Origin: Escherichia coli | GTDB taxonomy: Bacteria; Pseudomonadota; Gammaproteobacteria; Enterobacterales; Enterobacteriaceae | Assembly: GCF_003790525.1 (NCBI RefSeq) | Contig: NZ_CP033635.1 | DNA length: 64,000 nt | Direction: 5' to 3' (one strand) | Part shown: one piece after another, positions 13,079 through 31,402 of the stretch | Numbering within the stretch: position 1 is the first letter of the stretch | How the letters are laid out: the number at the start of each line of letters is the position of its first letter | The notes under the pieces: model-generated | Database searches by the model: none | The model's input: only the letters and a program-made list of their open reading frames with translations | Told to the model about the DNA's origin: nothing | Made by a program: the position numbers and the translations under genes

Positions 13079-13198
13079 AACGCCTCCTGACGCAACAACT
13101 TACCCGCACAAAATAGAATTGTGCTGTACAAACGTCCAGTTTGAAAGAAGTTTCCTGCGAGGCGCTACGCAAAACGATCGTTAATTTTCATTATTTTA

Positions 13199-13232: not shown

Positions 13233-13294
13233 TATATCACCTTTTCCCCACGTCATTATGTGGAACACTTCAGCAATATCATCAGGAGAAACGT

Positions 13295-14062
13295 ATGGCA
13301 GAAACCTCTTCAACCACCGCAGGCGCACAAACGTTATTACGTGGACTGGCGGTTCTTAATGCTGTTTATAACGGCTGCCATGACCTAAAAAGTATCGGCG
13401 AGTTCACCGGCACGACCCGGAGCACAACCCATCGTTTAGTCACCGTTCTGGTGGAACAACGCTACCTGCGCCATGTCCCAACGCAGGGCTACCAACTGGG
13501 TGCCAAACTGATCGAATTCGGTGCCAGAGCACTGGAAAGCACCTCGCTGTACGAAATTGCCCAGCCCGTTTTGCAACGCCTTGCCCGTTACACCCTGGAC
13601 ACCGTGCATCTGGGGATCGTTGAAGGCGACGAAGTGCTGTATCTGGAGAAGATCAACAGTCAGCGCGGGCTGGAAATGCGCTCACGCCCAGGCCATCGCA
13701 TGCCACTGGCAATCACCGGCATCGGCAAAGCATTGATACTCAACCGAACAGAAGAAGAGTGGCGCACGCTGTTTAAGACCTGTGGTGATGAAACAAAACT
13801 GGGCGCATTTATTCAGAACATGCGTCGTTATGCCGCCAGTGGTTTTGCTTTTGATCTGGAAGAGAACGAGCCGACTATCCGTTGCGTTGCAGCGCCGGTT
13901 TACAACGCCCGGGATGAAATTGTGGCGGCTATTTCTGTCGCCAGTACCACCACGTATATGTCGCTGGCGCGTCTGGAAGAACTGGCACCTTACGTCAAAT
14001 CCTGTGCAGAAGAGATATCCGCTGAACTGGGCTGGGGTAAGCACGTCCGCAAAGATAAATAA
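13295..14062 (+). CDS. IclR-family transcriptional regulator
   Basis: N-terminal wHTH region (LRGLAVLNAV...) and C-terminal effector domain; start chosen at MAETSST (the six-frame ORF extends from 13208). Confidence 0.75.
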   Translation: MAETSSTTAGAQTLLRGLAVLNAVYNGCHDLKSIGEFTGTTRSTTHRLVTVLVEQRYLRHVPTQGYQLGAKLIEFGARALESTSLYEIAQPVLQRLARYTLDTVHLGIVEGDEVLYLEKINSQRGLEMRSRPGHRMPLAITGIGKALILNRTEEEWRTLFKTCGDETKLGAFIQNMRRYAASGFAFDLEENEPTIRCVAAPVYNARDEIVAAISVASTTTYMSLARLEELAPYVKSCAEEISAELGWGKHVRKDK

Positions 14063-14085
14063 ACCATGATTAAAGGAAACGACTA

Positions 14086-15090: not shown

Positions 15091-15709
15091 GACGCTTTTG
15101 CAAAAAACCGGGTTAGTCGCCATTTTACGCGGCGTGAAACCGGATGAGATTGTCGCCATCGGTGAAAAACTGTACGCCGCCGGATTCCGCCTGATTGAGA
15201 TTCCTATGAACTCGCCGGAGGCGTTGCAAAGTATCAGTTTACTGCGCGACGCCCTGCCTAAGGATTGCCTGGTCGGAGCCGGAACTGTGCTTTCGGTAGA
15301 GCAGGTGGTTGCGGTTAAAGAGGCTGGGGGCCAGATTATCGTGATGCCGCATTGCGATACTGCGGTGATCCGTCGCGCCCGTGCGCTGGGTATGTATTGT
15401 GCGCCTGGCGTCGCCACGCCCACCGAAGCCTTTGCTGCCATTGAACATGGTGCTAATGCCATCAAGCTGTTCCCGGCTGAACAAATTACGCCAGAAGTTA
15501 CCAAAGCCTGGCGTGCGGTTATTCCACAATCCGTTCCGATGTTACCGGTTGGCGGTATCACACCGGAAACCATGGCGCGTTATCTGAGCCACGGCGCAAA
15601 CGGCTTTGGCCTCGGTTCTGCGCTATATCACCCCGGCATGACGCCAGAGCAAGTCTATGAAAATGCAGTACTGTTTATGAACGCATGGAACAATTTAAAT
15701 AGCAACTAA
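15080..15709 (+). CDS. 2-dehydro-3-deoxy-6-phosphogalactonate (KDPGal/KDPG-type) aldolase, DgoA-like
   Basis: LVAILRGVKPDE...IEIPMNSP...GAGTVL...CAPGVATPTEAF...GANAIKLFPA...PVGGITPE; start at MPFKTLL overlaps the kinase stop by 11 nt. Confidence 0.7.
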   Translation: MPFKTLLQKTGLVAILRGVKPDEIVAIGEKLYAAGFRLIEIPMNSPEALQSISLLRDALPKDCLVGAGTVLSVEQVVAVKEAGGQIIVMPHCDTAVIRRARALGMYCAPGVATPTEAFAAIEHGANAIKLFPAEQITPEVTKAWRAVIPQSVPMLPVGGITPETMARYLSHGANGFGLGSALYHPGMTPEQVYENAVLFMNAWNNLNSN

Positions 15710-15733
15710 CTGATAAATAAGGATATAAAAGCA

Positions 15734-16708
15734 ATGATAAAACATCTTACCTTACCGAAAAAAATGGCTGCAATGGTACTTCTTGCAGGCGCTGCCCTCA
15801 GCATTGCGCCTGTACAGGCAGCCTCCTACCCAACCAAACAGATCGAGTTAGTCGTTCCCTACGCTGCCGGAGGCGGTACGGATCTGGTTGCCCGTGCCTT
15901 TGCTGATGCCGCCAAAAACCATTTACCCGTCAGCATCGGGGTTATCAATAAACCTGGCGGAGGCGGTGCTATCGGCCTGAGTGAAATCGCCGCTGCCCGC
16001 CCTGGCGGTTACAAAATTGGTTTAGGCACGGTTGAACTGACCACCCTTCCCAGCCTCGGAATGGTGCGTTTTAAAACCAGCGATTTTAAACCCATTGCCC
16101 GTCTAAACGCGGATCCGGCTGCTATCACCGTCCGTTCTGATGCGCCGTGGAATAGCTATGAAGAATTTATGACTTACGCCAAAGCGAATCCCGGAAAAGT
16201 ACGCATTGGTAACTCAGGCACCGGAGCTATCTGGCATCTGGCGGCAGCTGCACTGGAAGACAAAACGGGTGCGAAGTTTTCTCATGTCCCGTATGACGGC
16301 GCAGCCCCTGCCATTACAGGCCTGTTAGGCGGGCATATTGAAGCGGTTTCCGTAAGCCCAGGAGAAGTTATCAACCATGTGAAAGGCGGCAAGCTGAAGA
16401 CACTGGTAGTGATGGCGGATGAGCGAATGAAAACCATGCCTGACGTCCCGACGTTAAAAGAGAAAGGCGTTGATCTCTCCATCGGCACCTGGCGCGGCCT
16501 GATTGTGTCGCAAAAAACGCCGCAGGATGTGGTGGATGTTCTGGCAAAGGCAGCAAAAGAGACGGCTGAAGAGCCTGCATTCCAGGATGCACTGCAAAAG
16601 TTGAATCTCAACTATGCATGGCTTGACGCTGCCAGCTTCCAGACCCAAATCAGCGAACAGGAAAAGTACTTTGACGAGTTGCTGACTCGCCTGGGCCTGA
16701 AAAAATAA
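15734..16708 (+). CDS. Tripartite tricarboxylate transporter (TTT) periplasmic substrate-binding protein, TctC/Bug family
   Basis: 324 aa with signal peptide (MIKHLTLPKKMAAMVLLAGAALSIAPVQA); characteristic YPTKQIELVVPYAAGGGTDL. Confidence 0.75.
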   Translation: MIKHLTLPKKMAAMVLLAGAALSIAPVQAASYPTKQIELVVPYAAGGGTDLVARAFADAAKNHLPVSIGVINKPGGGGAIGLSEIAAARPGGYKIGLGTVELTTLPSLGMVRFKTSDFKPIARLNADPAAITVRSDAPWNSYEEFMTYAKANPGKVRIGNSGTGAIWHLAAAALEDKTGAKFSHVPYDGAAPAITGLLGGHIEAVSVSPGEVINHVKGGKLKTLVVMADERMKTMPDVPTLKEKGVDLSIGTWRGLIVSQKTPQDVVDVLAKAAKETAEEPAFQDALQKLNLNYAWLDAASFQTQISEQEKYFDELLTRLGLKK

Positions 16709-16721
16709 ACCTGAGGTACGG

Positions 16722-17231
16722 TTGATGAACACAAAACAGTCTGTTGCTCAACTCGCCGTACCGCACCGCAAGCGCCTTTCATCAACGATGGTGGTGGCGC
16801 TGTTACTTTGTGTGGTTGCTGGCGCGGTGATGATTAATGCCGCTGATTTTCCAGCAACTGCCATTGAAACGGATCCCGGTGCAAGTGCCTTCCCTACCTT
16901 CTATGCCTGTGCCCTGATTGTGCTCGCTGTCTTGCTGGTGATACGCGATCTTTTGCAGGCAAAACCAGCCTCTTGCGCCAACGCACAGGAAAAACCGGCA
17001 TTCAGGAAAACGGCAACAGGAATTGCGGCAACCGCGTTTTATATTGTGACGATGAGCTACTGCGGTTATCTCATTACTACTCCTGTTTTCCTCATCGTCA
17101 TTATGACGTTGATGGGCTACAGGCGATGGGTACTCACACCGGGTATTGCGCTGCTGTTAACGGCAATCCTCTGGTTGCTGTTTGTCGAAGCGTTACAGGT
17201 GCCATTGCCTGTCGGCACATTTTTCGAATAA
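16722..17231 (+). CDS. TTT small membrane subunit, TctB-like
   Basis: 169 aa, four predicted TM helices, immediately between TctC-like and TctA-like genes. Confidence 0.65.
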   Translation: MMNTKQSVAQLAVPHRKRLSSTMVVALLLCVVAGAVMINAADFPATAIETDPGASAFPTFYACALIVLAVLLVIRDLLQAKPASCANAQEKPAFRKTATGIAATAFYIVTMSYCGYLITTPVFLIVIMTLMGYRRWVLTPGIALLLTAILWLLFVEALQVPLPVGTFFE

Positions 17232-17243
17232 CAGGGGCCAGCA

Positions 17244-18734
17244 ATGTTTGAAAGTGAACTTTTAACTCAGGGTTTTTCGACATTACTCAATAATCCTCAG
17301 GCGCTGCTGTTTGCCACTTTTGGGGTGATGCTGGGTATTGTGATTGGCGCTTTGCCTGGTCTGACAGCGACCATGGGTGTGGCGATTTTGCTGCCTTTCA
17401 CCTACGGCATGGAGCCTGTTTCTGGCTTGTTGATGATTTGCGGCGTCTTTTTTGGTGGCGTCTACGGTGGTTCTATCACCGCAATTTTGCTCAAAATTCC
17501 CGGAACGCCTGCCGCCGCAGCCACCGCTATTGATGGTTATGAGCTGACGAAACAGGGAAAAGCAGGGCTGGCATTGAGTGCCGCCACGTTCTCTTCCTTT
17601 AGTGGCGGAACGCTCAGCATTATCGTGCTGATGTTTCTCTCTCCGGTACTTGCCAGTTGGGCGCTGAAATTTAGTGCCTCGGAGTCCTTCGCCCTGGCAA
17701 CCTTCGGACTGAGCATTATTGCCAGTATTTCCGGTGAGTCACTGATTAAAGGGCTGATTGCCGGGGTTGGCGGATTGCTGATCGCAACGATAGGCCTTGA
17801 TCCAATGGGCGGTTTTCCACGGTTTACAGGTGGATTTGTGGAGCTGATGAATGTGCCATTTATCCCGGTGATGATTGGTTTATTTGCTGCTTCAGAAGCA
17901 TTCCGCTCTATGGAGCAAAACCAGCAAATTCGTCAGGGGGCGAAGGTGGCTATCGGCAGTCTGTTACTGCCCTGGCAAACACTACGCCGCATTGCATTAA
18001 CCATTTTGCGCTCATCAGGATTAGGGGTTTTTATCGGCATGATCCCCGGTGCGGGGGCGGATATTGCAGCTTTTGTTGCCTATAACGAAACTCGTCGTTT
18101 CAGTAAGACACCAGAAAACTTTGGTAAGGGTGAAATTAAAGCTGTGGCCTCCTGTGAGGCAGGCGCGAATGGCTGCACCGGTGGCGCATTGTTACCTATG
18201 CTGACGCTGGGGATCCCTGGCGATGCGGTAACCGCCATCATGCTGGGCGCGTTAACGTTACAGGGAATGCAACCAGGCCCGCTGATGTTTACCGACCACG
18301 GCGATATGGTTTATACACTGTTTGTCGGCATGATCTTCTGTTACTTCATGCTACTAGTTCTTGGACTGCTCTCTTTGAAAGTCATCGGTAATGTGGTGAA
18401 AATTCCCGGCAATATTCTCACACCGATGATCCTCGCACTTTGTGTGGTCGGGACTTATGCGTTGAACAATAGCCTGTTTGATGTTGGCATTATGCTGATT
18501 GCAGGCGTGGTGGGCTATTTCATGCAGAAAGGAGGATATCCGGCATCACCCGTAGTGCTGGCATTGATTATGGGGCCAATGGCGGAAAGTAATTTTCGCC
18601 GTGCGCTGTCGCTTTCTGGTGGGTCACTCGACTTTCTGTATACCCGACCGATAACTCTGGCATTGCTGACTCTGGCAGCCTTTACGCTACTGACGCCAAT
18701 AATCCGCAAAATAATGCGTTTACGGCGTCAATAA
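17244..18734 (+). CDS. TTT large permease subunit, TctA-like
   Basis: 496 aa polytopic membrane protein with duplicated G-rich motifs (LPGLTATMGVAILLP / IPGAGADIAAFVAYNE). Confidence 0.75.
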   Translation: MFESELLTQGFSTLLNNPQALLFATFGVMLGIVIGALPGLTATMGVAILLPFTYGMEPVSGLLMICGVFFGGVYGGSITAILLKIPGTPAAAATAIDGYELTKQGKAGLALSAATFSSFSGGTLSIIVLMFLSPVLASWALKFSASESFALATFGLSIIASISGESLIKGLIAGVGGLLIATIGLDPMGGFPRFTGGFVELMNVPFIPVMIGLFAASEAFRSMEQNQQIRQGAKVAIGSLLLPWQTLRRIALTILRSSGLGVFIGMIPGAGADIAAFVAYNETRRFSKTPENFGKGEIKAVASCEAGANGCTGGALLPMLTLGIPGDAVTAIMLGALTLQGMQPGPLMFTDHGDMVYTLFVGMIFCYFMLLVLGLLSLKVIGNVVKIPGNILTPMILALCVVGTYALNNSLFDVGIMLIAGVVGYFMQKGGYPASPVVLALIMGPMAESNFRRALSLSGGSLDFLYTRPITLALLTLAAFTLLTPIIRKIMRLRRQ

Positions 18735-19793: not shown

Positions 19794-20603
19794 ATGGCAA
19801 CAACACAACAATCTGGATTTGCACCTGCTGCATCGCCTCTCGCTTCGACCATCGTTCAGACTCCGGACGACGCGATTGTGGCGGGCTTCACCTCTATCCC
19901 TTCACAAGGGGATAACATGCCTGCTTACCATGCCAGACCAAGGCAAAGCGATGGCCCACTGCCAGTGGTCATTGTAGTGCAGGAAATTTTTGGCGTGCAT
20001 GAACATATCCGCGATATTTGTCGCCGTCTGGCGCTGGAGGGGTATCTGGCTATCGCACCTGAACTTTACTTCCGCGAAGGCGATCCGAATGATTTTGCCG
20101 ATATCCCTACGCTGCTTAGCGGTCTGGTAGCAAAAGTGCCTGACTCGCAGGTGCTGGCCGATCTCGATCATGTCGCCAGTTGGGCTTCCCGCAACGGCGG
20201 CGATGTTCATCGTTTAATGATCACCGGATTCTGCTGGGGTGGACGTATCACCTGGCTGTATGCCGCGCATAATCCACAACTGAAAGCAGCGGTGGCATGG
20301 TACGGCAAATTAACCGGCGATAAGACGCTGAATTCACCGAAACAACCTGTTGATATCGCAACCGATCTTAACGCGCCGGTTCTCGGCTTATATGGTGGTC
20401 AGGATAACAGCATTCCGCAAGAGAGTGTGGAAACGATGCGCCAGGCGCTGCGGGCAGCAAACGCGAAAGCAGAGATTATCGTGTACCCGGATGCAGGGCA
20501 TGCGTTCAACGCCGATTATCGTCCGAGCTATCATGCCGAGTCTGCGAAAGACGGCTGGCAGCGAATGTTGGAATGGTTTACACAGTATGGTGTTAAAAAG
20601 TAA
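19794..20603 (+). CDS. ysgA: Dienelactone hydrolase-family protein (carboxymethylenebutenolidase-like) YsgA/DlhH
   Basis: MATTQQSGFAPAASPLASTIVQTPDDAIV... alpha/beta hydrolase; RBS ggag before the chosen ATG. Confidence 0.85.
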   Translation: MATTQQSGFAPAASPLASTIVQTPDDAIVAGFTSIPSQGDNMPAYHARPRQSDGPLPVVIVVQEIFGVHEHIRDICRRLALEGYLAIAPELYFREGDPNDFADIPTLLSGLVAKVPDSQVLADLDHVASWASRNGGDVHRLMITGFCWGGRITWLYAAHNPQLKAAVAWYGKLTGDKTLNSPKQPVDIATDLNAPVLGLYGGQDNSIPQESVETMRQALRAANAKAEIIVYPDAGHAFNADYRPSYHAESAKDGWQRMLEWFTQYGVKK

Positions 20604-20669
20604 CGCCATAGTCGCTAAATCTGATGATTAAGCTCACACAATTTCAACGATTTTTTTAATCTCAAAACC

Positions 20670-20698
20670 ATACAGCATCAAAAAATTTGTTGCTGTAT
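20670..20698. promoter_or_regulatory. Perfect inverted repeat ATACAGCA-N13-TGCTGTAT, with a related direct-repeat copy (AAAAATTTcGTTGCTGT) ~70 bp downstream; candidate operator upstream of the accessory operon
   Basis: Read directly in the 256-bp ysgA / hydrolase intergenic region. Confidence 0.45.
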
Positions 20699-20859
20699 GC
20701 CACTCTTTGACTCCCTTCACATTCGTCATCACACCACCTGCTGAATGCAAAAATTTCGTTGCTGTGCGGCAAACTTTTTTCCTGTTTTGTGCCGCTTTTC
20801 TCCTGAATACTCGTTCTCAGAACAACTGGATCGTTTAAACATCAGACAGGAGATTTACC

Positions 20860-21528
20860 ATGACGCAATCCATTTTTCAGGCTCAACCCTTTGAATTACC
20901 TTTTGATCCGCGCACAACTGCACTGGTCATGATCGACATGCAGCGTGACTTTGTCGAAGCAGGGGGCTTCGGTGAGGCACTGGGCAATGATGTTTCACTG
21001 GTACGCACGGCTATCGCACCATGTACAGAGGTGCTGGCAGCCGCACGTCAAAAAGGAATTATGGTTATTCATACTCGTGAAGGCCATCGTGCAGACTTAA
21101 GCGACTGCCCGCCAGCCAAACTGACGCGCGGCGGAAAAACCTTTATTGGTGAACCAGGACCGATGGGACGCATTCTGGTCAGAGGTGAAGCAGGTCATGA
21201 CATCATTCCTGAACTGTACCCGGTGGCAGGCGAACCGGTGATTGATAAGCCTGGCAAAGGCGCGTTTTATCAAACCGACTTACATCTGATTTTGCAAAAC
21301 CACGGTATCAAGACGCTGATAGTTTGTGGTGTTACAACCGAAGTTTGCGTAACCACCACCGTGCGCGAAGCAAATGATCGTGGCTATGAATGCATTATCC
21401 CGGAAGATTGTGTCGGCTCCTATTTCCCGGAATTCCAGAAATACGCCCTCGAGATGATCAAAGCACAAGGTGCCATTTTCGGTTGGGTTACTGATTCCAA
21501 AGCCATTATTGCAGGCCTGGAAGGCTAA
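20860..21528 (+). CDS. Isochorismatase-family cysteine hydrolase (amidohydrolase of RutB / biuret-hydrolase / N-carbamoylsarcosine amidase type)
   Basis: 222 aa; ALVMIDMQRDF (Asp), conserved Lys, LIVCGVTTEVCV (nucleophile Cys); RBS aggag. Confidence 0.75.
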   Translation: MTQSIFQAQPFELPFDPRTTALVMIDMQRDFVEAGGFGEALGNDVSLVRTAIAPCTEVLAAARQKGIMVIHTREGHRADLSDCPPAKLTRGGKTFIGEPGPMGRILVRGEAGHDIIPELYPVAGEPVIDKPGKGAFYQTDLHLILQNHGIKTLIVCGVTTEVCVTTTVREANDRGYECIIPEDCVGSYFPEFQKYALEMIKAQGAIFGWVTDSKAIIAGLEG

Positions 21529-21533
21529 CACCG

Positions 21534-22394
21534 ATGGTACAGGTTACGCTTTGCGCATCGTCGTTGGGATATCTTTTCCCGCAGAATGAAACGCAAGATT
21601 TACGTCTACATAGCGCTTTTAAACATGCGGTAAATCTGTATTCAGACGCGGGAACATTCATCACTCTGTTGTGTGCGCAAACGTATCTGAATCTCCCTGA
21701 TGCAGCCAGAGTCTGGCTACCTGAATGTTGGGACTGGCGAAGAGAGATTGCCCATTCAGATCCCATTCAGTTAACCCCAGGCTTACTGCGGACACCTCGA
21801 TTTTGTGTGGCGCTCGAAAACGCAACGCTCTGGCAGTCGCCATTTGTGGGGGGAATGCTGACACTTGAGGCATTCCCTTTGGTTTTCCAGCACTACCCAA
21901 CGATGGCATCGCAACGGCTTTTATTTTGTCTGGAACATAACGTTCAAAGCACATTGCACCTGCCGGATAGTCTCACGCACCAGGGATTAGCGATTATGGA
22001 GCATCCAGATGCGCTGGAACGCCAGGTGCCACAACTGATCGGCTTTGGTAAAGGCTTAACGCCCGATGGAGATGACTATTTGTTGGGCTATCTGGCAGCA
22101 CTCTGGTTATGGCAACTCCCTGCACCACTTGCCGATCATCAATACCGGTTGCAGCAGGTAATTGATCAACATGCGCACAACACCACGGATATCAGTCGTC
22201 ATTATCTGGAGCGTGCGCTTCAGGGACATTTTTCAGAACCGATTTGCCAGTTACTCGCACAACTGGTTGGGAGTGCATCGGCAATGACAATCGCATCCTG
22301 TGCAGAACAGGTCATGCAATTTGGCGCAACGTCAGGAGTAGATTGCCTTGCAGGAATGCTGCATGGCTTTCGAACCCTGAACACCATAAATTGA
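21534..22394 (+). CDS. DUF2877-like protein (YlbF/AllH-like component of the FdrA module)
   Basis: 286 aa; assignment from family resemblance and position beside FdrA-like and DUF1116-like genes; the least secure assignment in the cluster. Confidence 0.5.
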   Translation: MVQVTLCASSLGYLFPQNETQDLRLHSAFKHAVNLYSDAGTFITLLCAQTYLNLPDAARVWLPECWDWRREIAHSDPIQLTPGLLRTPRFCVALENATLWQSPFVGGMLTLEAFPLVFQHYPTMASQRLLFCLEHNVQSTLHLPDSLTHQGLAIMEHPDALERQVPQLIGFGKGLTPDGDDYLLGYLAALWLWQLPAPLADHQYRLQQVIDQHAHNTTDISRHYLERALQGHFSEPICQLLAQLVGSASAMTIASCAEQVMQFGATSGVDCLAGMLHGFRTLNTIN

Positions 22395-22488
22395 TTTCAA
22401 CCTTTTCTCCCGTAGCCCGTTTATGGGGCTACACGGGGATGCTTTGCCCGAATTTTGCTATCGGGCGGAATGAAACAGGCGTAACAGC

Positions 22489-24048
22489 ATGAAAGTTAAA
22501 TATAAAGTTTTCAGTAATCTTTATCAGGACTCAGTTTCTCTGATGCAGATTTCCGCGCAAATCAGCAAGTTGCCCGGTATTCAACAGGCCTCGGTCGTCA
22601 TGGGAACACCCAATAATCTCGAGCAATTGAGCGATGCGGGTCTGGGTAACGAAATCAACGCCAGTCCCAATGATTTAGTGATTGCAGTCATGGGTGAAGA
22701 AGATATTTGCAATGAAGCACTGGTACTGGCCCAGCAACGTCTGACCAGCAAACCCGATGATGAAACGGATAGTGGCATTAAAACACCGGAAAAGGTCAGC
22801 CTGGAAATGGCACTGGAAGCCGAGCCCGAAGCCAACCTGGCACTCATTTCTGTACCGGGAGACTACGCCGCCGCCGAAGCAATTAAAGCGTTAAACCTCG
22901 GAATGAACGTGATGATGTTCAGCGATAACGTCAGTATCGTGCAGGAAAAATCCATCAAAACGCTTGCCCGAGAACGTCAGCGCATCGTAATGGGACCTGA
23001 CTGTGGAACCGCCATTGTTAACGGCATTCCGTTAGGCTTCGCTAATGTGGTGAAACGCGGAGCAATTGGTGTTATTGGCGCGTCAGGCACCGGGCTACAG
23101 GAAGTGACTTGCCGAATCGACCAGCTCGGAGCGGGTATTTCTCAGGCGTTGGGAACAGGCGGACATGATCTCAGTGAAGAGATTGGTGGAATATCGATGC
23201 TCTTCGCTTTAGATGCGCTGGCGCAAGACGATGAAACTCGCGTGATTGTGCTTATTTCAAAACCGCCTTCACCGATCGTTGCCCGGACTATTCTGGAGCG
23301 TGCCGAGGCTTGTGGAAAACCCGTGGTGGTGAATTTCCTCGGTGCGAATCCGCATGATCTGGCACGTCCCAATATCACCGCGGCCACCACACTTGCCAGC
23401 GCCGCAAATATCGCCGTGGCGTTACTGAATGATCAACCACTTCCGACTATCGAGACCGAAATTTCCTGCGACGATCTCACAATGTTACAAAACGCCTGCC
23501 AGCGCCTGCCAGCCCATCGCCAGGCGATACGCGGTGTTTTCGCCGGAGGAACCTTCTGCTACGAAGCGCAACTTATCTGCCAACAAAAGGGATTCAGCGC
23601 AGCCTCCAATACGCCAGTTGCGGGTAATCGTGCTCTGGCAAATATCTGGCAAAGCGAAGATCACACGTTGATCGATATGGGCGACGATGATTTCACCCGT
23701 GGCAAACCGCATCCAATGATCGACCCGACTCTGCGCAATCAACGTCTGCTCAACGAACTCAACGACTCACACACTGCCGTCGTGTTATTCGACCTGGTAC
23801 TTGGTTATGGCGCTTCCACGACGCCTGCCAGCGAATTACTGGACCAACTTTCACACATCGACATGAATAACGCACCGTTGCTGATTGCGCACGTTTGCGG
23901 AACGGAAGCTGATCCGCAAATACGCAGTCAGCAGATAAGCGCACTACAAAATGCAGGGGTCATCATCGCCAGCAGCAATGCACAGGCGGCGTTATGGGCC
24001 AGCACCGTTGCACAGACTCAGTTGCAGAAAAAGGGGCTAAACGCATGA
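22489..24048 (+). CDS. FdrA-like protein (succinyl-CoA synthetase alpha-like / acyl-CoA synthetase-like fold)
   Basis: 519 aa; MMFSDNV, VMGPDCGT, GVIGASGTG, HPMIDPTLRNQ motifs typical of FdrA/AllF family. Confidence 0.75.
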   Translation: MKVKYKVFSNLYQDSVSLMQISAQISKLPGIQQASVVMGTPNNLEQLSDAGLGNEINASPNDLVIAVMGEEDICNEALVLAQQRLTSKPDDETDSGIKTPEKVSLEMALEAEPEANLALISVPGDYAAAEAIKALNLGMNVMMFSDNVSIVQEKSIKTLARERQRIVMGPDCGTAIVNGIPLGFANVVKRGAIGVIGASGTGLQEVTCRIDQLGAGISQALGTGGHDLSEEIGGISMLFALDALAQDDETRVIVLISKPPSPIVARTILERAEACGKPVVVNFLGANPHDLARPNITAATTLASAANIAVALLNDQPLPTIETEISCDDLTMLQNACQRLPAHRQAIRGVFAGGTFCYEAQLICQQKGFSAASNTPVAGNRALANIWQSEDHTLIDMGDDDFTRGKPHPMIDPTLRNQRLLNELNDSHTAVVLFDLVLGYGASTTPASELLDQLSHIDMNNAPLLIAHVCGTEADPQIRSQQISALQNAGVIIASSNAQAALWASTVAQTQLQKKGLNA

Positions 24049-25469
24049 ATACCTTATTTAATCAGCCTTTGAAGGTTGTGAACGCGGGACTACACAGTTT
24101 TGCTGACAATATTCAACATGCCGGGGGAAGCGCAATTGCACTCAACTGGCAGCCACCAGCACAAGGCGATATTGACGCTGGATTGGATCTGGCATCGTTG
24201 CTACGTCATCCCCTGGTAGAAAATGCCAACCAAATCGCCATGACACGTTATCTCGAAGCACAGCCCGTGCTGGTGGATGTCATGCTCGCTAAAGAGGCCA
24301 TTCCAGAAATGGCTGAACAAAAACGTATTTTGCACTCTGGCCCGCCGATTGCCTGGGAAGAGATGTGTGGTCCGGTAAAAGGGGCGATTATTGGTGCCAT
24401 GCTGTACGAAGGTTGGGCCACCAGCCAGCAAGACGCTGAAAACCAAATAAACGCAGGCGAAATCGACCTTGCCCCTTGTCATCATTATCACGCGGTTGGC
24501 CCAATGGCAGGCATCATCAGCCCGTCGATGCCGTTATGGGTGGTAGAAAACAAAACCAACGGCCACCGTACTTTTAGCAATTTCAATGAAGGTCTGGGTA
24601 AGGTTCTCCGTTTTGGCGCCAATAACGATGAAGTTCTCAATCGTCTGGCCTGGATGCGCGATGAACTGGCGCCGGCAATGAAAGCAGCAATCGCACAACA
24701 CGGCGAGCTGGAACTCAAGCCATTAATGGCGCAGGCGCTGCATATGGGGGATGAAGTTCATAACCGCAATGCTGCCGCTACCGGTTTGCTGATTAAGCGC
24801 CTGCTCCCGGCATTGCTGGCCTGCTCTCTTCCACAGGAACATATCCAGCGCGTCGTGGCATTTATCACCGGTAACGATCACTTCTTCCTCAATCTTTCGA
24901 TGGCCGCCTGTAAAGCAATGATGGATGCCGCCGCCAATGTACCGTTCAGTTCAATGGTTACGGTGATGGCGCGTAACGGGGTGAATTTTGGTATTCGGCT
25001 TTCCGGTACTGGCGATCGCTGGTTCCAGGCTCCTGCCAATGCCGTTGAAGGTCTGTTCTTCCCCGGATTTGGCGTCGACGATGCCGCTGCTGACCTGGGT
25101 GATAGCGCAATTACTGAAACCGCAGGTGTGGGTGGCTTCGCGATGGCGTCGTCTCCGGCGATCGTCAAATTTGTGGGAGGCACCCCTGCCGATGCCACCA
25201 ATAACAGCCGTCGGATGCAAGCCGTCACCCTCGGCGGTAACCCCGCATTTACACTTCCAGCCCTCAATTTTGCCCCCACCGCAGCAGGGATTGATGCGCG
25301 TAAAGTGACCGATCGCGGCATTTTACCGGTCATCAATACGGGTATCGCCCACAAACAAGCGGGGGTCGGGCAAATTGGTGCCGGGATCACCACTGCGCCG
25401 ATGGCCTGTTTTGTCGCCGCTGTACGTGCACTGGCGGAGATCGTCGCAAAGGAGAACCATCATGGTTAA
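24045..25469 (+). CDS. DUF1116-like protein (YlbE/AllG-like)
   Basis: ~474 aa; start ATG overlaps the FdrA-like stop (ATGA), so translationally coupled. Confidence 0.6.
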   Translation: MNTLFNQPLKVVNAGLHSFADNIQHAGGSAIALNWQPPAQGDIDAGLDLASLLRHPLVENANQIAMTRYLEAQPVLVDVMLAKEAIPEMAEQKRILHSGPPIAWEEMCGPVKGAIIGAMLYEGWATSQQDAENQINAGEIDLAPCHHYHAVGPMAGIISPSMPLWVVENKTNGHRTFSNFNEGLGKVLRFGANNDEVLNRLAWMRDELAPAMKAAIAQHGELELKPLMAQALHMGDEVHNRNAAATGLLIKRLLPALLACSLPQEHIQRVVAFITGNDHFFLNLSMAACKAMMDAAANVPFSSMVTVMARNGVNFGIRLSGTGDRWFQAPANAVEGLFFPGFGVDDAAADLGDSAITETAGVGGFAMASSPAIVKFVGGTPADATNNSRRMQAVTLGGNPAFTLPALNFAPTAAGIDARKVTDRGILPVINTGIAHKQAGVGQIGAGITTAPMACFVAAVRALAEIVAKENHHG

Positions 25470-26418
25470 GCCACTGGCTGTCGTCGCGGTTGGCGGCAAT
25501 GCGCTCATTCAGGACGAGCAACGCAATAGTATTCCCGATCAATATGTTGCAGTGATGGAAAGCGTGCAGCATATCGTTGATATGGTTGAAGCCGGATGGG
25601 ACCTGGTGCTAACCCACGGTAATGGCCCGCAGGTGGGCTTTATTCTGCGCCGCTCTGAACTCGCCAGTAACGAAGTTTCTCCGGTTCCACTTGATTACGC
25701 CGTGGGTGATACACAAGGTGCAATTGGCTACATGTTCCAGAAAGCACTGCATAACGAATTGGCTCGCCGTGGCATAAACAAACCGGTAATTGCCCTGGTG
25801 ACACAAACGCGAGTCAGCCCACATGACGATGCTTTCGCCAGCCCCAGTAAACCAATTGGCGCGTTTCTCGATGAAGCAACGGCCCAACAACGCCAACAAC
25901 AACTCGGCTGGACGCTGATGGAGGACGCCGGGCGTGGTTGGCGGCGTACAGTTCCCTCTCCTGCCCCACTGGAAGTTATTGAGCACGACACCATCGCTCA
26001 CCTGGTGCGCCAGGGATATCTGGTTATTGCCTGCGGCGGCGGCGGTATTCCGGTGGTGCGAGACGGACAACAACTGAAAGGTGTAGAAGCCGTGATCGAT
26101 AAAGATCTGGCCTCCGCGCTGCTCGCCAGTCAGTTAGGCGCAGATCTGCTGGTGATCCCCACCGGTGTAGAAAAAGTGGCGATTAACTTTGGTACACCAC
26201 AACAACAGTGGCTCGACGCTATCAGCGTTGCCGAAGCGCAAACGCTGTTGCGGGAAGGTCAGTTTGGTGTCGGCAGTATGCAACCCAAAGTGGAAGCCAT
26301 TGTTGATTTCATCAATGCCAGCCAGCAACAAGGCAAACAGGCCAGCGGCCTGATTACTTCACCGCAAACCATAAAAGCAGCCCTGGCGCATCAGAGCGGT
26401 ACATGGATAACCCTTTAA
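25462..26418 (+). CDS. Carbamate kinase
   Basis: MVKPLAVVAVGGNALIQ... amino-acid-kinase fold, THGNGPQVG, IACGGGGIPVV; RBS aggag; overlaps the upstream gene by 8 nt. Confidence 0.8.
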   Translation: MVKPLAVVAVGGNALIQDEQRNSIPDQYVAVMESVQHIVDMVEAGWDLVLTHGNGPQVGFILRRSELASNEVSPVPLDYAVGDTQGAIGYMFQKALHNELARRGINKPVIALVTQTRVSPHDDAFASPSKPIGAFLDEATAQQRQQQLGWTLMEDAGRGWRRTVPSPAPLEVIEHDTIAHLVRQGYLVIACGGGGIPVVRDGQQLKGVEAVIDKDLASALLASQLGADLLVIPTGVEKVAINFGTPQQQWLDAISVAEAQTLLREGQFGVGSMQPKVEAIVDFINASQQQGKQASGLITSPQTIKAALAHQSGTWITL

Positions 26419-26434
26419 TTCTCTGGAGAACACA

Positions 26435-26824
26435 ATGACTACAACGCTTTTAGCCGTTAACGGAACGCTGATGCGCGGCCTGGAACTCAACCCAAATATG
26501 CAAAAAGCGGGCGGTATTTTTGTCCGTGAAGACCGAACTGACGCCCATTACCGGTTGTGGAGTATTAATGATCGCCATCCGGGAATGATTCGCGTGAATG
26601 AAGGAGGAACACACGTCGACGTAGAAATTTGGCAATTACCGCTGGCCAGTTTTGCCGCTCTGTTAATGAGCGAACCCGCTGGGCTGGCAATTGGCAAAAT
26701 CAAACTTGCCGATGGTAGCGAAGTGCTGGGCGTACTGGCAGAAAACTGGCTGACCGAAGGCCAACGGGAAATTACAGAACTGGGTAGCTGGCGCAAATAC
26801 ACCGGGCATTTTCATACTGTGTAA
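26435..26824 (+). CDS. Gamma-glutamylcyclotransferase-like (AIG2/GGCT fold) protein
   Basis: 129 aa; N-terminal AVNGTLMRG resembles the YGSLM-type GGCT motif. Confidence 0.55.
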   Translation: MTTTLLAVNGTLMRGLELNPNMQKAGGIFVREDRTDAHYRLWSINDRHPGMIRVNEGGTHVDVEIWQLPLASFAALLMSEPAGLAIGKIKLADGSEVLGVLAENWLTEGQREITELGSWRKYTGHFHTV

Positions 26825-26849
26825 CGCGCATTTATAAAGGGAACATACT

Positions 26850-28073
26850 ATGCGTAAAAAAGAAGAGAATCTGAATACGGCATCAGGATTGCGTATTGCC
26901 ATGATTTTGCTGGGTATTGCCGTCACACCTGTGCTGTTGTCATCCTCAAGCCTCGGCAATCAACTTTCCAGCGGCAGTTTAATTAGCGTCGTATTGTTAG
27001 GCGGCGTCATTCTGACCTTACTTTCAGCCATCACCATTAGCGTGGGAGAAAAAGCCCGCCTACCAACGTATGGCATTGTGAAATATTCGTTTGGCGAAAA
27101 AGGGGCCATCGCCATTAACATTTTGATGGCGATAAGTCTGTTCGGCTGGATTGCCGTTACCGCCAATATGTTTGGTCATTCGGTACATGACTTACTGGCT
27201 CAACATGGACTGGAAGTTCCACTGGCACTGTTAGTGGCGGCTGGCTGTGTCATTTTTGTCGCCTCTACGGCATTTGGCTTTGCCGTTCTGGGAAAAATTG
27301 CCCAGGTTGCCGTGCCGGTTATCGCGCTGGTGCTGTGTTACATCCTCTATGTGGCAACCCATACCGAAGTGGCAGTACCAGCGGCGATTGTGGAGATGAA
27401 TACAGGTGTCGCCGTTTCCACCGTTGTTGGCACCATTATTGTGCTGGTTGCCACACTGCCTGATTTCGGTAGTTTTGTGCATAACCGCAAACATGCGCTG
27501 ATTGCCGCAGGCGTGACGTTTCTGGTTGCCTACCCTCTGCTCTACTGGGCGGGTGCAACGCCGAGCGCCATTAGTGGTCAGGGATCTTTACTGGGTGCGA
27601 TGGCGGTATTCGGTGCGGTTCTGCCTGCGGCGCTGTTGTTGATTTTCGCCTGCGTCACCGGTAACGCGGGCAATATGTTCCAGGGCACGCTGGTGGTTTC
27701 CACACTGCTTACCCGCTTTCCCAAATGGCAGATTACCGTGGCGCTGGGTATCCTTTCCGCCATCGTAGGCAGTATGGATATTATGGCGTGGTTTATTCCG
27801 TTTCTGCTGTTCCTGGGTATCGCCACGCCACCCGTTGCCGGAATTTATATCGCTGACTTTTTCTTTTATCGCCGTAATGGCTATCAAGAGTCAGTGTTAG
27901 CCCAGGAGTCACAGATTAAAGTGCTGACATTCGCAGCATGGATCATAGGCGCAGCGGTTGGCTTTATGACCGTAAAAGGCTTATTCACCCTGACGACGAT
28001 CCCTTCGGTAGACTCGATTCTGGTGGCATGTATCGCTTATGCGATTCTCAGTCGGGCAAGTCAACACCGCTAA
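26850..28073 (+). CDS. NCS1-family nucleobase/cytosine-type permease (CodB-like)
   Basis: 407 aa, ~12 TM helices, overall similarity to purine-cytosine permeases. Confidence 0.7.
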   Translation: MRKKEENLNTASGLRIAMILLGIAVTPVLLSSSSLGNQLSSGSLISVVLLGGVILTLLSAITISVGEKARLPTYGIVKYSFGEKGAIAINILMAISLFGWIAVTANMFGHSVHDLLAQHGLEVPLALLVAAGCVIFVASTAFGFAVLGKIAQVAVPVIALVLCYILYVATHTEVAVPAAIVEMNTGVAVSTVVGTIIVLVATLPDFGSFVHNRKHALIAAGVTFLVAYPLLYWAGATPSAISGQGSLLGAMAVFGAVLPAALLLIFACVTGNAGNMFQGTLVVSTLLTRFPKWQITVALGILSAIVGSMDIMAWFIPFLLFLGIATPPVAGIYIADFFFYRRNGYQESVLAQESQIKVLTFAAWIIGAAVGFMTVKGLFTLTTIPSVDSILVACIAYAILSRASQHR

Positions 28074-28150
28074 TTCCTGGGTATACTCAGGCAATGATTA
28101 CGGCTGAATCTGGAGAGATTCAGCCACTTTACCACTGACCAGGAAGCCTT

Positions 28151-29047
28151 ATGTTCATCTCAGACGAAACGCTTCGTGTTATTCATCTGGTCGCCAGACA
28201 CCAGAGCATTACCACCGCAGCCGAGCAGTTAAATAAAGTCCCTTCCGCCATCAGTTACACCATCAAGAAAGCGGAAGAGAGCCTGGGCGTTGAACTGTTC
28301 ATTCGTAAGGGACGCTATATTGAATTATCGCCAGCGGGAAGTTACTTCATCGAACATAGCAAAACTATTCTTGGCGACCTGGAAGCATTAAAGCGCAACA
28401 CAGTGCTGATTCACGATGGTATTGAGCGTGAACTGACAATTGCGGTAAACAATATTATTCCTGGTGATTTGCTGGTGGCATTTATTCGAGATTTTGAACG
28501 GCAATTCACATCAACAACACTGACGGTAGATCTTGAGGTATACAACGGCTGCTGGGATGCGCTGTACAGTAAGCGTGCCGATCTGGTCTACGGTGCTCCT
28601 CATGCAGTGCCAAGCAGTGAAGGCATCATTAGCGAACCGGTCGGACAAATGGAATGGGATTTTGTCGTCAGCCCACTCCACCCACTGGCAGCGAAGCGGC
28701 ATCCATTAGAAAACAGTGAATTGCGTCATTATCCAGCGGTTTGTATCCGCGATACCTCCGTTAACTTCCCCCCGATGCAAGCCTGGTTGTTGGAAGGACA
28801 AAAACCCATTTTTGTTCCTGACTTCGCTACGGCAATCGCCTTAATAGAACAAAACGTCGGTATTGGTTATATTCCACATCATCTGGCATTGCCGTTATTG
28901 AACAGCGGTAAATTGCTTAAAAAGCCAATGCGCGAACATAAACACGCCACCAAGTTATTTCTTGCCGCTCGTTCCGATGGTATGGGCAAAGCCTGTCAGT
29001 GGTGCATAGAATATTTAAGAAATCCGCAATTAATTTTCTGTTCCTGA
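28151..29047 (+). CDS. LysR-type transcriptional regulator
   Basis: N-terminal HTH (LRVIHLVARHQSITTAAEQLNKVPSAISYTIKKAEESLG) plus substrate-binding domain. Confidence 0.8.
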   Translation: MFISDETLRVIHLVARHQSITTAAEQLNKVPSAISYTIKKAEESLGVELFIRKGRYIELSPAGSYFIEHSKTILGDLEALKRNTVLIHDGIERELTIAVNNIIPGDLLVAFIRDFERQFTSTTLTVDLEVYNGCWDALYSKRADLVYGAPHAVPSSEGIISEPVGQMEWDFVVSPLHPLAAKRHPLENSELRHYPAVCIRDTSVNFPPMQAWLLEGQKPIFVPDFATAIALIEQNVGIGYIPHHLALPLLNSGKLLKKPMREHKHATKLFLAARSDGMGKACQWCIEYLRNPQLIFCS

Positions 29048-29140
29048 AGATCCACATCATACCTGGCATACATAGCAAAATGGCTTCCGGTGTTGGAAGC
29101 CATTATTGTGCTGCAATTTACAATGACTCGTTAATACTCA

Positions 29141-31402
29141 TCATCCCCGACGCAAATTCTGCGCCGCCTGCACCATGTTCGCCAGTGCCGCGCGGGTTTC
29201 TGGCCAGCCGCGCGTTTTCAGGCCACAGTCCGGGTTGACCCACAGACGCTCTGCCGGAATGCGTTTTGCCGCTTTCTTCAGCAAGGCTTCAATCCATTCC
29301 ACGCTCGGTACGTTTGGCGAGTGAATGTCATAGACGCCAGGACCGATTTCATTTGGATAATCAAACTCTTCGAACGACTCCAGCAACTCCATGTCGGAAC
29401 GCGAGGTTTCGATGGTGATGACGTCTGCGTCCAGCGCCGCAATCGAATCCATGATGTCGTTGAACTCGCAGTAACACATGTGAGTGTGGATTTGTGTGTC
29501 ATCTTTCGCCACAGCGGCGTTGATACGGAAAGCCTCCACGCCCCACTGGAGATAGGCATCCCAGTCGCTGCGACGCAGTGGTAAACCTTCGCGCAATGCC
29601 GGTTCGTCAATCTGAATGATGCCAATTCCAGCGGCTTCCAGGTCCGCGACTTCATCACGCAGCGCCAGCGCAATTTGTTTGGCGATGGTTTCACGGCTGA
29701 CATCTTCACGCGGGAACGACCAGCAGAGAATAGTCACCGGGCCGGTCAACATCCCTTTCACCGGTTTATCAGTCAGGGATTGCGCATATTTTGCCCACTC
29801 CACGGTAATCGGTGCCGGGCGGCTAACGTCACCAATAACAATCGGTGGCTTCACGCAGCGGGAACCGTAGCTCTGTACCCAACCGTTTTGCGTAAAGACA
29901 AAGCCATCCAGATGCTCGCCAAAGTATTCCACCATGTCATTACGCTCGGCCTCGCCATGTACCAGCACATCCAGTCCCAAACGTTCCTGCTCAACAATGG
30001 CCTGCTTGATATGTTCCGCAATGCCTGTGCGGTAGTTGTTGGCGTCGAGATTACCCTTTTTGAAATCCAGACGCAGGGTACGAATCTCCGTGGTTTGCGG
30101 GAAAGAACCAATCGTGGTGGTCGGCCATGCTGGGAGTTTAAAACGCGCACGCTGGGCTTCAGCACGCACTTCATAGACATTCGCACGCTGACTGTCCTGA
30201 GCGGTGATCGCCGCCAGACGCTTTTCTACTGCCGGATTATGTACACGAGTAGAGTGACGACGCGCCTGAATCGGAGCGCTCCACGCTGCCAGAGCTGCCG
30301 TATCACCACTGTTCAACGCATCGCGCAGCAATGCCAGTTCATGACATTTTTGCAGGGCGAAGGCAAACCAGCTTTTCACTTCTGCATCAAGACGTGTTTC
30401 CACACTCAGGTCAATGGGACTGTGCAGCAGTGAGCAGGAAGATGCCACCCACAAATCACGTTTGCCGACAATGTCCTTAATTTGCGCATATTTCTCGGTA
30501 AGATCGGCGCGCCAGACGTTACGACCATTGATAAGACCCGCAGACAGCAGCCAGTCAGAAGGCAGACGCTTGTGCAGTTCAGCAACGTCATCTTTACCAT
30601 GTACAAGATCGACATGCAGACCCTGAACAGGCAGCGCAGTAATCGTGTCGAGATTTGGTGTTACGCCTTCAAAATAGGTGGTCAGCAGCAGTTTCACCTG
30701 TCCCTGGAGCGCGTCGTAAGCGGGTTTGTATGCGTCCAGCCACGCCTGCGGCAGTTCCAGTACCAGCGCGGGTTCATCAATCTGTACCCACTCGATGCCG
30801 CGTTTCGCCAGTTCTGCCAGCACTTGCTGATAAACCGGCAGAATGTCGTTCAGCAGGCTCAGGCGATCAAACTGTTCACCTTTCACTTTACCCAGCCACA
30901 GGTAGGTAACTGGCCCCAGCAGCACAGGTTTCACCTTGTGGCCCAGCGCCAGCGCCTCGTCCACTTCCTCCAGCAGCTGCGTCCAGGTCAGTTTGAACTG
31001 TTGGCCTTTAACGAACTCCGGCACCATGTAGTGATAGTTGGTGTTAAACCATTTGGTCATTTCCGCTGCCGCCGCAGGTTCGCCAGTCGGTGCACGTCCA
31101 CGACCAATACGGAACAGGGTGTCGATATCTACCGAACCATCGTTGTTCTGGTGACGCGCCGGAACATTACCCAGCAGCAGACTGGTGGTCAGTACATGAT
31201 CGTACCAGGCAAAATCGCCCACCGGCAGCAGGTCGATACCCGCTTGCTTTTGTTGCTCCCAGTGACGAGCACGTAATTCACGCCCTACCGCCAGCAGTTC
31301 TTCACGCGTGGAGTTCCCCGCCCAATAACTCTCTTGCGCTTTTTTCAGCTCGCGACGCAGGCCAACGCGAGGGAAACCGAGGGTGTGATTAAGAATTGTC
31401 AT
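29141..31402 (-). CDS. metE: Cobalamin-independent methionine synthase MetE
   Basis: 753 aa, [29 protein letters not shown]... Confidence 0.95.

Follow-up and report, generated by a model that had tools for sequence, protein, structure and literature searches.

What do the eight genes that separate ysgA from metE in a part of Escherichia coli strains enable the cell to degrade? We analysed them in a window of 64,000 nucleotides (nt) from E. coli contig NZ_CP033635.1 (NCBI RefSeq assembly GCF_003790525.1), which is 100% identical to E. coli SMS-3-5 (NC_010498.1). Both the open reading frame (ORF) listing and the RefSeq annotation showed that the ysgA-metE interval holds eight genes on the + strand (20860-29047), while the spacing between the two flanking genes is 39 nt in K-12-type strains. 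The original prediction, made from the sequence alone, had described such a same-strand cluster between two genes adjacent in K-12, had named its protein families and had read it as an ATP-yielding route for an imported carbamoyl compound. The cluster was borne out, all named families were recovered by NCBIfam, Pfam and PDB sequence searches, and the general reading was upheld and could be sharpened to triuret and 1-carboxybiuret as the probable compounds. We propose, with confidence that is evenly balanced, that these genes make up an operon for the catabolism of triuret (carbonyldiurea, H2N-CO-NH-CO-NH-CO-NH2) or of a planar acyl-ureide very close to it. More tentatively, and at less than even chances, its FdrA/AllG/AllH-like enzyme may be a new carbamoyltransferase acting on 1-carboxybiuret, perhaps also on allophanate; the degradation of triuret and cyanuric acid would then have a widespread ATP-conserving branch, so far undescribed, with two entry points.

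The cysteine hydrolase is predicted to be of the TrtA type

The first gene of the cluster (20860-21528, +) encodes an isochorismatase-like cysteine hydrolase of 222 amino acids (aa). Among solved structures, the best match was Herbaspirillum TrtA (6XIX, 270 bits), followed by Rhizobium BiuH (6AZO, 237 bits) and RutB (105 bits), and the protein is 59% identical to TrtA and 53.5% identical to BiuH. Its top NCBIfam match was the BiuH model NF050097, at 279.8 bits and under the cut-off of 370, and the RutB model TIGR03614 gave 111.9 bits against a cut-off of 377.95. For TrtA, the residues of the triad, those that contact the substrate and six positions discriminating it from BiuH have been described (PMC7948467). 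We found that D26, K130, C163, V158 and T159 of the window hydrolase align with D24, K129, C162, V157 and T158 of TrtA. A genome scan with the hydrolase as query gave 80 loci at 67-99% identity; the Asp-Lys-Cys triad is invariant in all 80 homologues, and the substrate-contact residues F29, E72, K132 and Q202 are kept in the window protein and in every one of them. The Val-Thr pair of the cis-peptide is also conserved, the cis geometry itself not being readable from sequence.

At the six discriminating positions, F35, N41, A134, E160, Y187 and I205 in TrtA numbering (Y, Y, S, D, T and V in BiuH), the window hydrolase carries the TrtA residue each time (F37, N43, A135, E161, Y188 and I206). The signature reads FNAEYI in 73 of the 80 homologues and FNSEYI in the other 7, and the A134S change is neutral in TrtA (PMC7948467). 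Because the best solved-structure match and the catalytic, binding and discriminating residues all agree, the hydrolase is predicted to be of the TrtA type and to convert triuret to 1-carboxybiuret and NH3. BiuH identity was rejected on the score below the NF050097 cut-off and on the six non-BiuH residues, and RutB identity on the score far below the TIGR03614 cut-off and on the absence of rut genes from the cluster; the isochorismatase family named in the original prediction is narrowed accordingly. Neither a second hydrolase nor an amidase was found in the window, and the clustering of TrtA with biuH and atzF known from Herbaspirillum and Rhizobium does not occur there. No second hydrolase was found in the 64 loci that bear the FdrA module either; the only second hydrolases among the 80 loci belong to two loci without the module (L070 and L079), and these hydrolases read YYSDTV, the BiuH signature.

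The FdrA/AllG/AllH-like module is a third paralogous system

The next four genes, all on the + strand, encode an AllH/DUF2877-family subunit (286 aa, 21534-22394; Pfam AllH PF11392, E 6.5e-27), an FdrA/AllF-like subunit with a succinyl-CoA-synthetase-alpha-like fold (519 aa, 22489-24048; NCBIfam FdrA NF004760, 496 bits, cut-off 433), an AllG/DUF1116-like subunit (474 aa, 24045-25469; Pfam AllG PF06545, E 8.6e-99) and a carbamate kinase (318 aa, 25462-26418; arcC equivalog TIGR00746, 364.4 bits, cut-off 358.25; NF009007, 376.7 bits, cut-off 266). For the AllH-like, AllG-like and AH_C-like proteins the family came from Pfam, NCBIfam having given no assignment. The three AllFGH-family subunits are encoded together by adjacent or overlapping genes, the AllG-like gene overlapping the FdrA-like gene by 4 nt. 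It has been shown experimentally that AllFGH is an oxamate transcarbamylase, which forms carbamoyl phosphate and oxamate from oxalurate and phosphate, and that AllK (YbcF) is the catabolic carbamate kinase partnering it (PMC11326118, PMC9843812); the chemistry that the original prediction had supposed for this paralogous module and kinase now has an experimental basis.

The window has the same three protein families beside a carbamate kinase, and the presumed chemistry is shared too: an N-carbamoyl amide would be phosphorolysed to carbamoyl phosphate, from which ATP would then be made. It differs in its gene order, AllH-AllF-AllG as in yahEFG, in its linkage to a TrtA-type hydrolase, an AH_C-like protein and an NCS1 permease instead of allDCE, and in its predicted substrate, which is carboxybiuret and not oxalurate. 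The FdrA-like protein is 43.6% identical to AllF and 43.1% to YahF, the AllG-like protein 48.8% to AllG and 46.5% to YahG, the AllH-like protein 36% to AllH (partial alignment) and 27% to YahE, and the kinase 50% to YahI and 41% to AllK; identity over module and kinase is 37-49% to AllF/AllG/AllH/AllK and 27-50% to YahE/YahF/YahG/YahI. The yahDEFGHIJ cluster of K-12, to which no function is assigned, resembles the window in the order DUF2877, FdrA-like, DUF1116, carbamate kinase and in its FdrA/DUF1116 domain split, but yah has an ankyrin protein and the Amidohydro_1 enzyme YahJ, whereas the TrtA-type hydrolase, the AH_C-like protein and the NCS1 permease are found in the window only. A segment of about 40 residues (V.N.GL.SFA...W.P) forms the C-terminus of AllF (residues ~512-544), whereas it stands at the N-terminus of the window AllG-like protein (24045-24170) and of YahG. 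This fission and fusion of a segment between the two subunits indicates that the FdrA-like and AllG-like proteins would act as a complex.

In a neighbour-joining tree, the hydrolase-linked FdrA-like proteins formed a clade of their own, apart from AllF and YahF, and SMS-3-5 keeps a full allS...allFGHK locus elsewhere in its genome. Because allFGHK is retained, the clade is separate and identity is low, the window module is a third paralogous system, and a relocated allantoin locus, which the original prediction had raised as the finding that would overturn it, was ruled out. Orthology to AllF, AllG or AllH was rejected on the same grounds (37-49% identity, separate clade, allFGHK elsewhere), and neither the window nor the orthologous loci sampled have any all gene, allDCE included, beside the cluster. 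The all locus of SMS-3-5 has a peculiarity of its own, an IS1 that interrupts the uracil/xanthine transporter gene between allB and glxK (L086:18755-20833).

Two unrelated front-end enzymes interchange before the module

Reverse sampling from AllG-like proteins at 72-88% identity gave five samples. Four of them showed the same TrtA cluster (Salmonella, a Rahnella-like organism, Psychrobacter and Vibrio vulnificus), and the fifth had the order 411-aa membrane protein, cyanuric acid amidohydrolase, NCS2 permease, AllH, FdrA, AllG, carbamate kinase and LysR, with no TrtA, AH_C or NCS1 gene. We traced this 10-kb unit (L093/L094, e.g. L094:1450-11529) to at least 47 plasmids, most of which are conjugative. 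Their hosts belong to Citrobacter, Klebsiella, Enterobacter, Leclercia, Raoultella, Aeromonas, Shewanella and, in one case, E. coli, and several isolates had been collected in hospital showers; in one plasmid examined, pE51_002 (L103, NZ_CP042536.1, 106458-116536), it is flanked by IS5 and IS26. The amidohydrolase reached 581 bits with the NCBIfam model (cut-off 360), and 584 bits with PDB 6BUM compared with 324 for barbiturase, scores by which the plasmid enzyme is to be regarded as a bona fide cyanuric acid hydrolase. No BiuH, AtzE or AtzF genes were found near the unit. By its appearance it is a self-contained cassette for the use of cyanuric acid, and no description of this arrangement was found in the literature. 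Its proteins are 66% (FdrA), 79% (AllG), 71% (kinase) and 66% (LysR) identical to those of the window, and the nearest relatives of its module are TrtA-linked modules of two other Enterobacteriaceae (71-82% for FdrA, AllG and kinase, 69-70% for LysR).

The plasmid cyanuric acid hydrolase and the 411-aa protein are Firmicute-like. In all three Firmicutes sampled, Moorella sp. Hama-1 (L104), a Bacillota genome seen in 204 data blocks (L105-L107) and Alkaliphilus crotonatoxidans (L108), a cyanuric acid hydrolase gene lies within or beside AllH-AllF-AllG, together with a PucR-type regulator and a conserved membrane protein of 411-435 aa. The clusters of L105-L108 include a kinase gene, and none was called within the stretch read for Moorella. 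The Bacillota genome also has a second AllF/AllG pair, beside a YahJ-like Amidohydro_1 enzyme and an NCS1 permease.

Biochemical work has established the Moorella enzyme as a cyanuric acid hydrolase that forms 1-carboxybiuret (PMC6557486), and 1-carboxybiuret is also what TrtA forms from triuret (PMC7948467). Since two unrelated enzymes with one common product interchange before an orthologous module, the simplest reading of these gene arrangements is that the module consumes 1-carboxybiuret.

Conservation of the cluster and alternative back-ends

The 80 hydrolase loci come from Enterobacterales, Vibrionaceae, Shewanella, Motilimonas, Burkholderiales, Neisseriales, Dyella, Pseudovibrio, Mycobacteria, Chloroflexi and a Desulfotomaculum metagenome-assembled genome (MAG), and the cluster recurs in more than 60 species of several phyla. 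Next to the hydrolase gene we found genes for FdrA-like (64 loci), AllG-like (58), AllH-like (52) and stand-alone AH_C-like proteins (60), carbamate kinase (53) and NCS1 permease (47); the loci without the module are mostly short contigs, and the AllH-like gene is missing in some orthologous clusters, e.g. in Mycobacteria. The eight-gene arrangement is not a chance grouping, because the same gene set and order recur beside the hydrolase in most of the 80 loci. In Avibacterium gallinarum (L020:2699-14009) two FdrA/AllG modules stand in tandem, each with its own LysR gene; the first is yah-like (ankyrin protein, ~530-aa membrane protein), and the second follows a TrtA-type hydrolase and ends with AH_C.

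Some loci differ in what follows the hydrolase. One of them (L066) joins a TrtA-type hydrolase to a full allophanate hydrolase (802 bits) and an amidase of the AtzE family (728 bits), the family of 1-carboxybiuret hydrolase, and has no FdrA module; another (L079) has TrtA, BiuH and allophanate hydrolase, again with no FdrA module. Because these two loci pair TrtA with such enzymes where the module is absent, the module would fill the slot that is held elsewhere by hydrolytic carboxybiuret or biuret enzymes. Three further loci (L069, L075 and L084) contain a full allophanate hydrolase (823 bits) with TrtA, the module and the kinase, and no stand-alone AH_C; allophanate is a plausible downstream intermediate. 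Comammox clusters with trtA, biuH, atzF and allFGHK have no gene for the carboxybiuret decarboxylase TrtB, and the authors regarded that arrangement as two co-located pathways (PMC12625717). Our model would account for the missing trtB.

Compared with the TrtA-(TrtB)-BiuH-AtzF pathway of Herbaspirillum sp. BH-1 (PMC7948467), the first enzyme type and the predicted intermediate 1-carboxybiuret are alike, whereas the window is without BiuH, TrtB and the amidase domain of allophanate hydrolase; downstream it has a phosphorolytic module, a kinase and an AH_C paralogue, which would conserve ATP where the other route is purely hydrolytic. The AtzD-AtzEG-AtzH-AtzF pathway of Pseudomonas sp. ADP (PMC6219798) likewise passes through 1-carboxybiuret (predicted for the window) and has an AH_C-type domain in AtzF, and the hydrolase relative in L066 has an AtzE-family amidase and a full allophanate hydrolase as neighbours. 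Unlike Pseudomonas sp. ADP, the window is without AtzD, AtzE, AtzG, AtzH and AtzF, and the sister cluster of plasmids and Firmicutes joins an AtzD-type hydrolase directly to an AllHFG-like module and kinase.

The small AH_C-like protein

The sixth gene (26435-26824, +) encodes a stand-alone protein of 129 aa with a GGCT-like fold, which matched Pfam AH_C (PF21986, E 1.8e-41) and weakly GGACT. It covers positions 472-595 of the 600-position allophanate hydrolase model only and aligns with allophanate hydrolase C-domains; the GGCT-like family of the original prediction was right and becomes, more exactly, a paralogue of this C-domain. It is identical to PDB 5C5Z, a structural-genomics entry named 'glutamyl-tRNA amidotransferase', a name that finds no backing in the sequence evidence. 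All 7 full-length allophanate hydrolases compared have the His of the GAH[LM] motif, and all 60 stand-alone copies have Leu in its place. This His is said to have been found catalytic in the C-domain by Fan et al. in 2013. N9, R14, N21, E32, H48 and E80 are invariant in the stand-alone copies, and K88 is kept in 59 of the 60. No amidase-signature domain or amidase gene was found in the protein or the cluster, and true allophanate hydrolase identity was ruled out, the amidase domain and the GAH[LM] His both being missing.

Stand-alone-type AH_C is fused to BiuH-type hydrolases in two proteins (P0035 and P0004), and the AH_C gene is absent, along with the TrtA and NCS1 genes, from the cyanuric acid hydrolase cluster. 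Because it is lost with TrtA in that variant and fused to BiuH-type hydrolases, the AH_C-like protein probably belongs with the isochorismatase-type hydrolase and not with the module. It may handle an N-carboxy intermediate, for example by decarboxylating it. Other fusions in the family join carbamate kinase to a BiuH-like hydrolase (P0051 on L087:1993-3843, a eukaryote-like contig, and P0070), and those of the group P0001, P0044, P0035 and P0004 include BiuH with TrtA and hydrolase with an allophanate-hydrolase-like amidase.

Transport and regulation

The permease (407 aa, 26850-28073, +) scored 146 bits with the NCBIfam cytosine-permease model NF008241, under the cut-off of 326, which ruled out CodB orthology. 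Its orthologues carry Pfam Transp_cyt_pur and so belong to the NCS1 family, and the protein is presumed to be the substrate importer. In 21 of the 80 loci a polytopic membrane protein of ~530 aa (e.g. L006:17392-18996) replaces it; this protein gave no Pfam, NCBIfam or PDB match and probably represents an undescribed transporter family. In Rahnella and its relatives, the genes directly upstream encode a UrtA-type urea ABC system (594 bits), and some such loci keep the NCS1 permease. The variety of transporters points to a urea-like solute.

The last gene (28151-29047, +) encodes a LysR-type regulator of the PunR/AllS group (298 aa), which scored 286.7 with the PunR model (cut-off 345) and 214.3 with the AllS model (cut-off 372) and is 34% identical to AllS. 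It is orthologous, at 66% identity, to the LysR of the cyanuric acid hydrolase variant. Because the regulator is orthologous between both cluster types, this suggests that the inducer may be an intermediate common to the TrtA-type and the cyanuric-acid-type clusters.

Proposed pathway and alternative explanations

Family membership, residue signatures, gene linkage and the front-end swap are observations, and from them we infer the catalytic steps as follows. Triuret would be brought in by the NCS1 permease, and the TrtA-type hydrolase would cut one terminal amide, giving 1-carboxybiuret (H2N-CO-NH-CO-NH-COO-) and NH3, an activity known for the 59%-identical Herbaspirillum enzyme. The FdrA/AllG/AllH-like complex would then transfer the terminal carbamoyl group of carboxybiuret to phosphate, yielding carbamoyl phosphate and allophanate, and a second round on allophanate may yield carbamoyl phosphate and carbamate. 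Carbamate kinase, by the activity known for its family, would pass the phosphate to ADP, giving ATP and carbamate, which would break down to NH3 and CO2. The LysR protein would activate the operon, probably by sensing a shared intermediate. Carboxybiuret and oxalurate (H2N-CO-NH-CO-COO-) are one NH apart, and because of this single-NH difference and the analogy with AllFGH, the module is proposed to act on carboxybiuret as AllFGH does on oxalurate. No published proposal of this pathway was found in the literature.

Several points weigh against this pathway. The TrtA signature is a prediction that rests on one characterised TrtA, and the hydrolase clade is 67-92% identical internally and 59% identical to that enzyme, which makes a neighbouring specificity possible. 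Carboxybiuret decays to biuret within minutes, and the module may in truth act on biuret. The model does not explain what becomes of allophanate in E. coli, there being no amidase domain in the cluster. The AH_C-like protein is strictly conserved in TrtA-type clusters, yet it is given no clear step and is absent from the cyanuric acid variant, and the Firmicute modules stand at about the same distance from the window module as from YahFG. Finally, the availability of triuret in E. coli habitats is an assumption; work cited in PMC7948467 describes triuret as a constituent of human urine and as a product of urate and peroxynitrite.

The alternative that survives best, though unlikely, is that the module acts on biuret: carboxybiuret would be decarboxylated, spontaneously or by the AH_C-like protein in a TrtB-like manner, and biuret would be split into carbamoyl phosphate and urea, the latter being excreted. 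The decay of carboxybiuret within minutes (PMC7948467, PMC6557486) fits this explanation, as does the fusion of stand-alone-type AH_C to BiuH-type hydrolases, and the AH_C-like protein would gain a role analogous to that of the allophanate hydrolase C-domain, which acts after the amidase domain has carried out the amide-releasing step (PMC5770610); an excreted dead-end product also has a precedent in the oxamate of the allantoin pathway (PMC11326118). However, biuret is without the terminal carboxylate that likens carboxybiuret to oxalurate, the cyanuric acid variant does without AH_C, and the comammox clusters that bear the module are without trtB. The three loci with a full allophanate hydrolase beside the module need an allophanate intermediate, which biuret phosphorolysis would not yield, and a urease-negative E. 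coli would lose half of the nitrogen.

We give a still lower probability to the explanation that the hydrolase acts on biuret, or another small ureide, to form allophanate, which the module would convert to carbamoyl phosphate and carbamate. The top NCBIfam match to BiuH and the 53.5% identity to the Rhizobium enzyme argue for it, together with the fusion of carbamate kinase to a BiuH-like domain in P0051 and P0070 and the report of biuH beside allFGHK in archaeal ammonia oxidisers (PMC12625717). On the other side, the score lies under the BiuH equivalog cut-off, the six discriminating residues are all TrtA-type, and characterised TrtA is 10^4-fold less active on biuret (PMC7948467); the cyanuric acid variant, moreover, supplies carboxybiuret and has no BiuH with which to reach allophanate.

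A second oxalurate branch, in which an isofunctional oxamate transcarbamylase receives oxalurate made by the hydrolase from a related amide, is very improbable: an AllFGH-family module, a carbamate kinase and an AllS-like LysR regulator would suit it, but the strain already has allFGHK, the module belongs to a distinct clade, no allantoin genes are linked in the loci sampled, and the enzymes that are linked consistently indicate a chemistry of biuret, triuret and cyanuric acid. Least probable of all, and rejected on model scores and gene context, is pyrimidine nitrogen scavenging of the Rut kind, as suggested for this region in strain BEN2908 (PMC12928451), since the hydrolase and the permease are only distant kin of RutB (111.9 vs 378) and CodB (146 vs 326), the hydrolase is far nearer to TrtA and BiuH, no rutA-like or other Rut genes are present, and orthologous clusters use urea-type ABC transporters and enzymes of allophanate, carboxybiuret and cyanuric acid as alternative partners. 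The route through triuret and 1-carboxybiuret is the reading we retain.

Upstream region and terminator

The 256 nt upstream of the hydrolase gene (20604-20859, +) contain a 31-bp palindrome (20669-20699), a 30-nt direct repeat (20679-20708 and 20748-20777), an ATACT -10-like element near 20808 and two TCACA boxes, and an alignment showed that these motifs are kept across 12 enterobacterial genera or species. Between 20400 and 29300, sigma-70-like sites were not in excess over chance (5 found, 9.0 expected), and a sigma-54 consensus search gave 45 matches against 47 expected, none of them in the upstream region. Because these consensus scans remained at chance level, an activator-dependent promoter of the hydrolase gene would fit. 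Neither the sigma-70 scan nor that of the same interval for terminator-like sites (11 found, 10.7 expected) was informative. A hairpin between the LysR gene and metE (29079-29104, both strands) had folding energies of -21.1 kcal/mol (+) and -19.9 kcal/mol (-), with z-scores of -3.6 and -4.0; it is probably a bidirectional terminator and stands in place of the K-12-type hairpin seen in L002.

The island and its spread in E. coli

The cluster is flanked by ysgA (19794-20603, +) on the left and metE (29141-31402, -), convergent with the LysR gene, on the right. The left junction lies inside the final ysgA codons, the protein ending in ...QYGVKK here and in ...QYGGKKSL in the K-12 type. The intergenic gaps, in gene order, are 5, 94, -4, -8, 16, 25 and 77 nt, and the cluster is better viewed as a seven-gene operon with its own regulator, because the LysR gene has its own 77-nt spacer and lies upstream or divergent in other genera. 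At least 80% of the region is present in 1553 of 5426 complete E. coli genomes (~29%), and base composition gave no sign of recent foreign origin (region GC 0.44-0.59).

The region has been described before. The tkt1 genomic island, reported in 2012, is a 16-kb metE-ysgA insertion of phylogroup B2 extraintestinal pathogenic E. coli (ExPEC), which combines the same eight genes (APECO1_2632-2639) with an RpiR regulator, tkt1, a PTS component and hxlB, and occurs in 80-94% of B2 uropathogenic E. coli (UPEC) and neonatal meningitis E. coli (NMEC) strains (PMC3349570). The full layout was seen in one B2-type genome examined, and SMS-3-5 has the eight-gene half only. The same region appears as GR 29 in a 2026 comparison of the avian pathogenic E. 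coli (APEC) strain BEN2908, where a Photobacterium relative was noted (PMC12928451). The literature matches were the tkt1-island paper, the BEN2908 comparison and a study of nitrifier MAGs, and no functional study of the eight genes was found among them; the view of the original prediction that the combination corresponds to no characterised pathway also stood, no paper on the pathway having been found. The island is already known descriptively, and the proposed pathway would be new in the way it combines known kinds of parts.

On E. coli plasmids we observed a ~190-nt remnant of the 3' end of the LysR gene, with 94% identity, beside IS1 (L098:11992-12198, plasmid pGF4-A). The plasmid matches to the window in E. 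coli (130 places) consist of this remnant only, with the cluster absent, and the remnant suggests that part of the cluster was once mobilised. A second islet of the window occupies the rmuC-udp interval (~12700-18734) and encodes an IclR regulator, a 2-dehydro-3-deoxygalactonokinase, a KDPGal aldolase and a tripartite tricarboxylate transporter, TctCBA (TctB, 16722-17231; TctA, 17244-18734), with a counterpart at L085:2795-8234. It is missing in K-12-type strains and has been mentioned merely as a '5-kb islet' (PMC3349570).

Implications

Our model offers a testable function for the half of a pathogen island that has stood without an assigned function for more than 10 years, and this proposed function ties the island to host urate chemistry. 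It predicts a second substrate specificity for the AllFGH transcarbamylase family and would explain why trtA, biuH or cyanuric acid hydrolase genes lie beside 'allFGHK' in nitrifiers, Firmicutes and plasmids, neighbours that the published view treats as two separate pathways side by side (PMC12625717). It would also correct the names 'acyl-CoA synthetase FdrA', 'cytosine permease' and, for 5C5Z, 'glutamyl-tRNA amidotransferase'.

If the model is true, the cyanuric acid entry would be widespread in anaerobic Firmicutes and would have been captured on conjugative plasmids of hospital-plumbing Enterobacterales, where, we speculate, chlorinated-isocyanurate disinfectants could feed the plasmid variant with cyanuric acid. 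The triuret entry, in turn, would be fixed in a chromosomal island typical of extraintestinal pathogenic E. coli of phylogroups B2, D and F, and ExPEC could, again as a speculation, draw both nitrogen and energy from a product of urate oxidation in urine, inflamed tissue and bird excreta.

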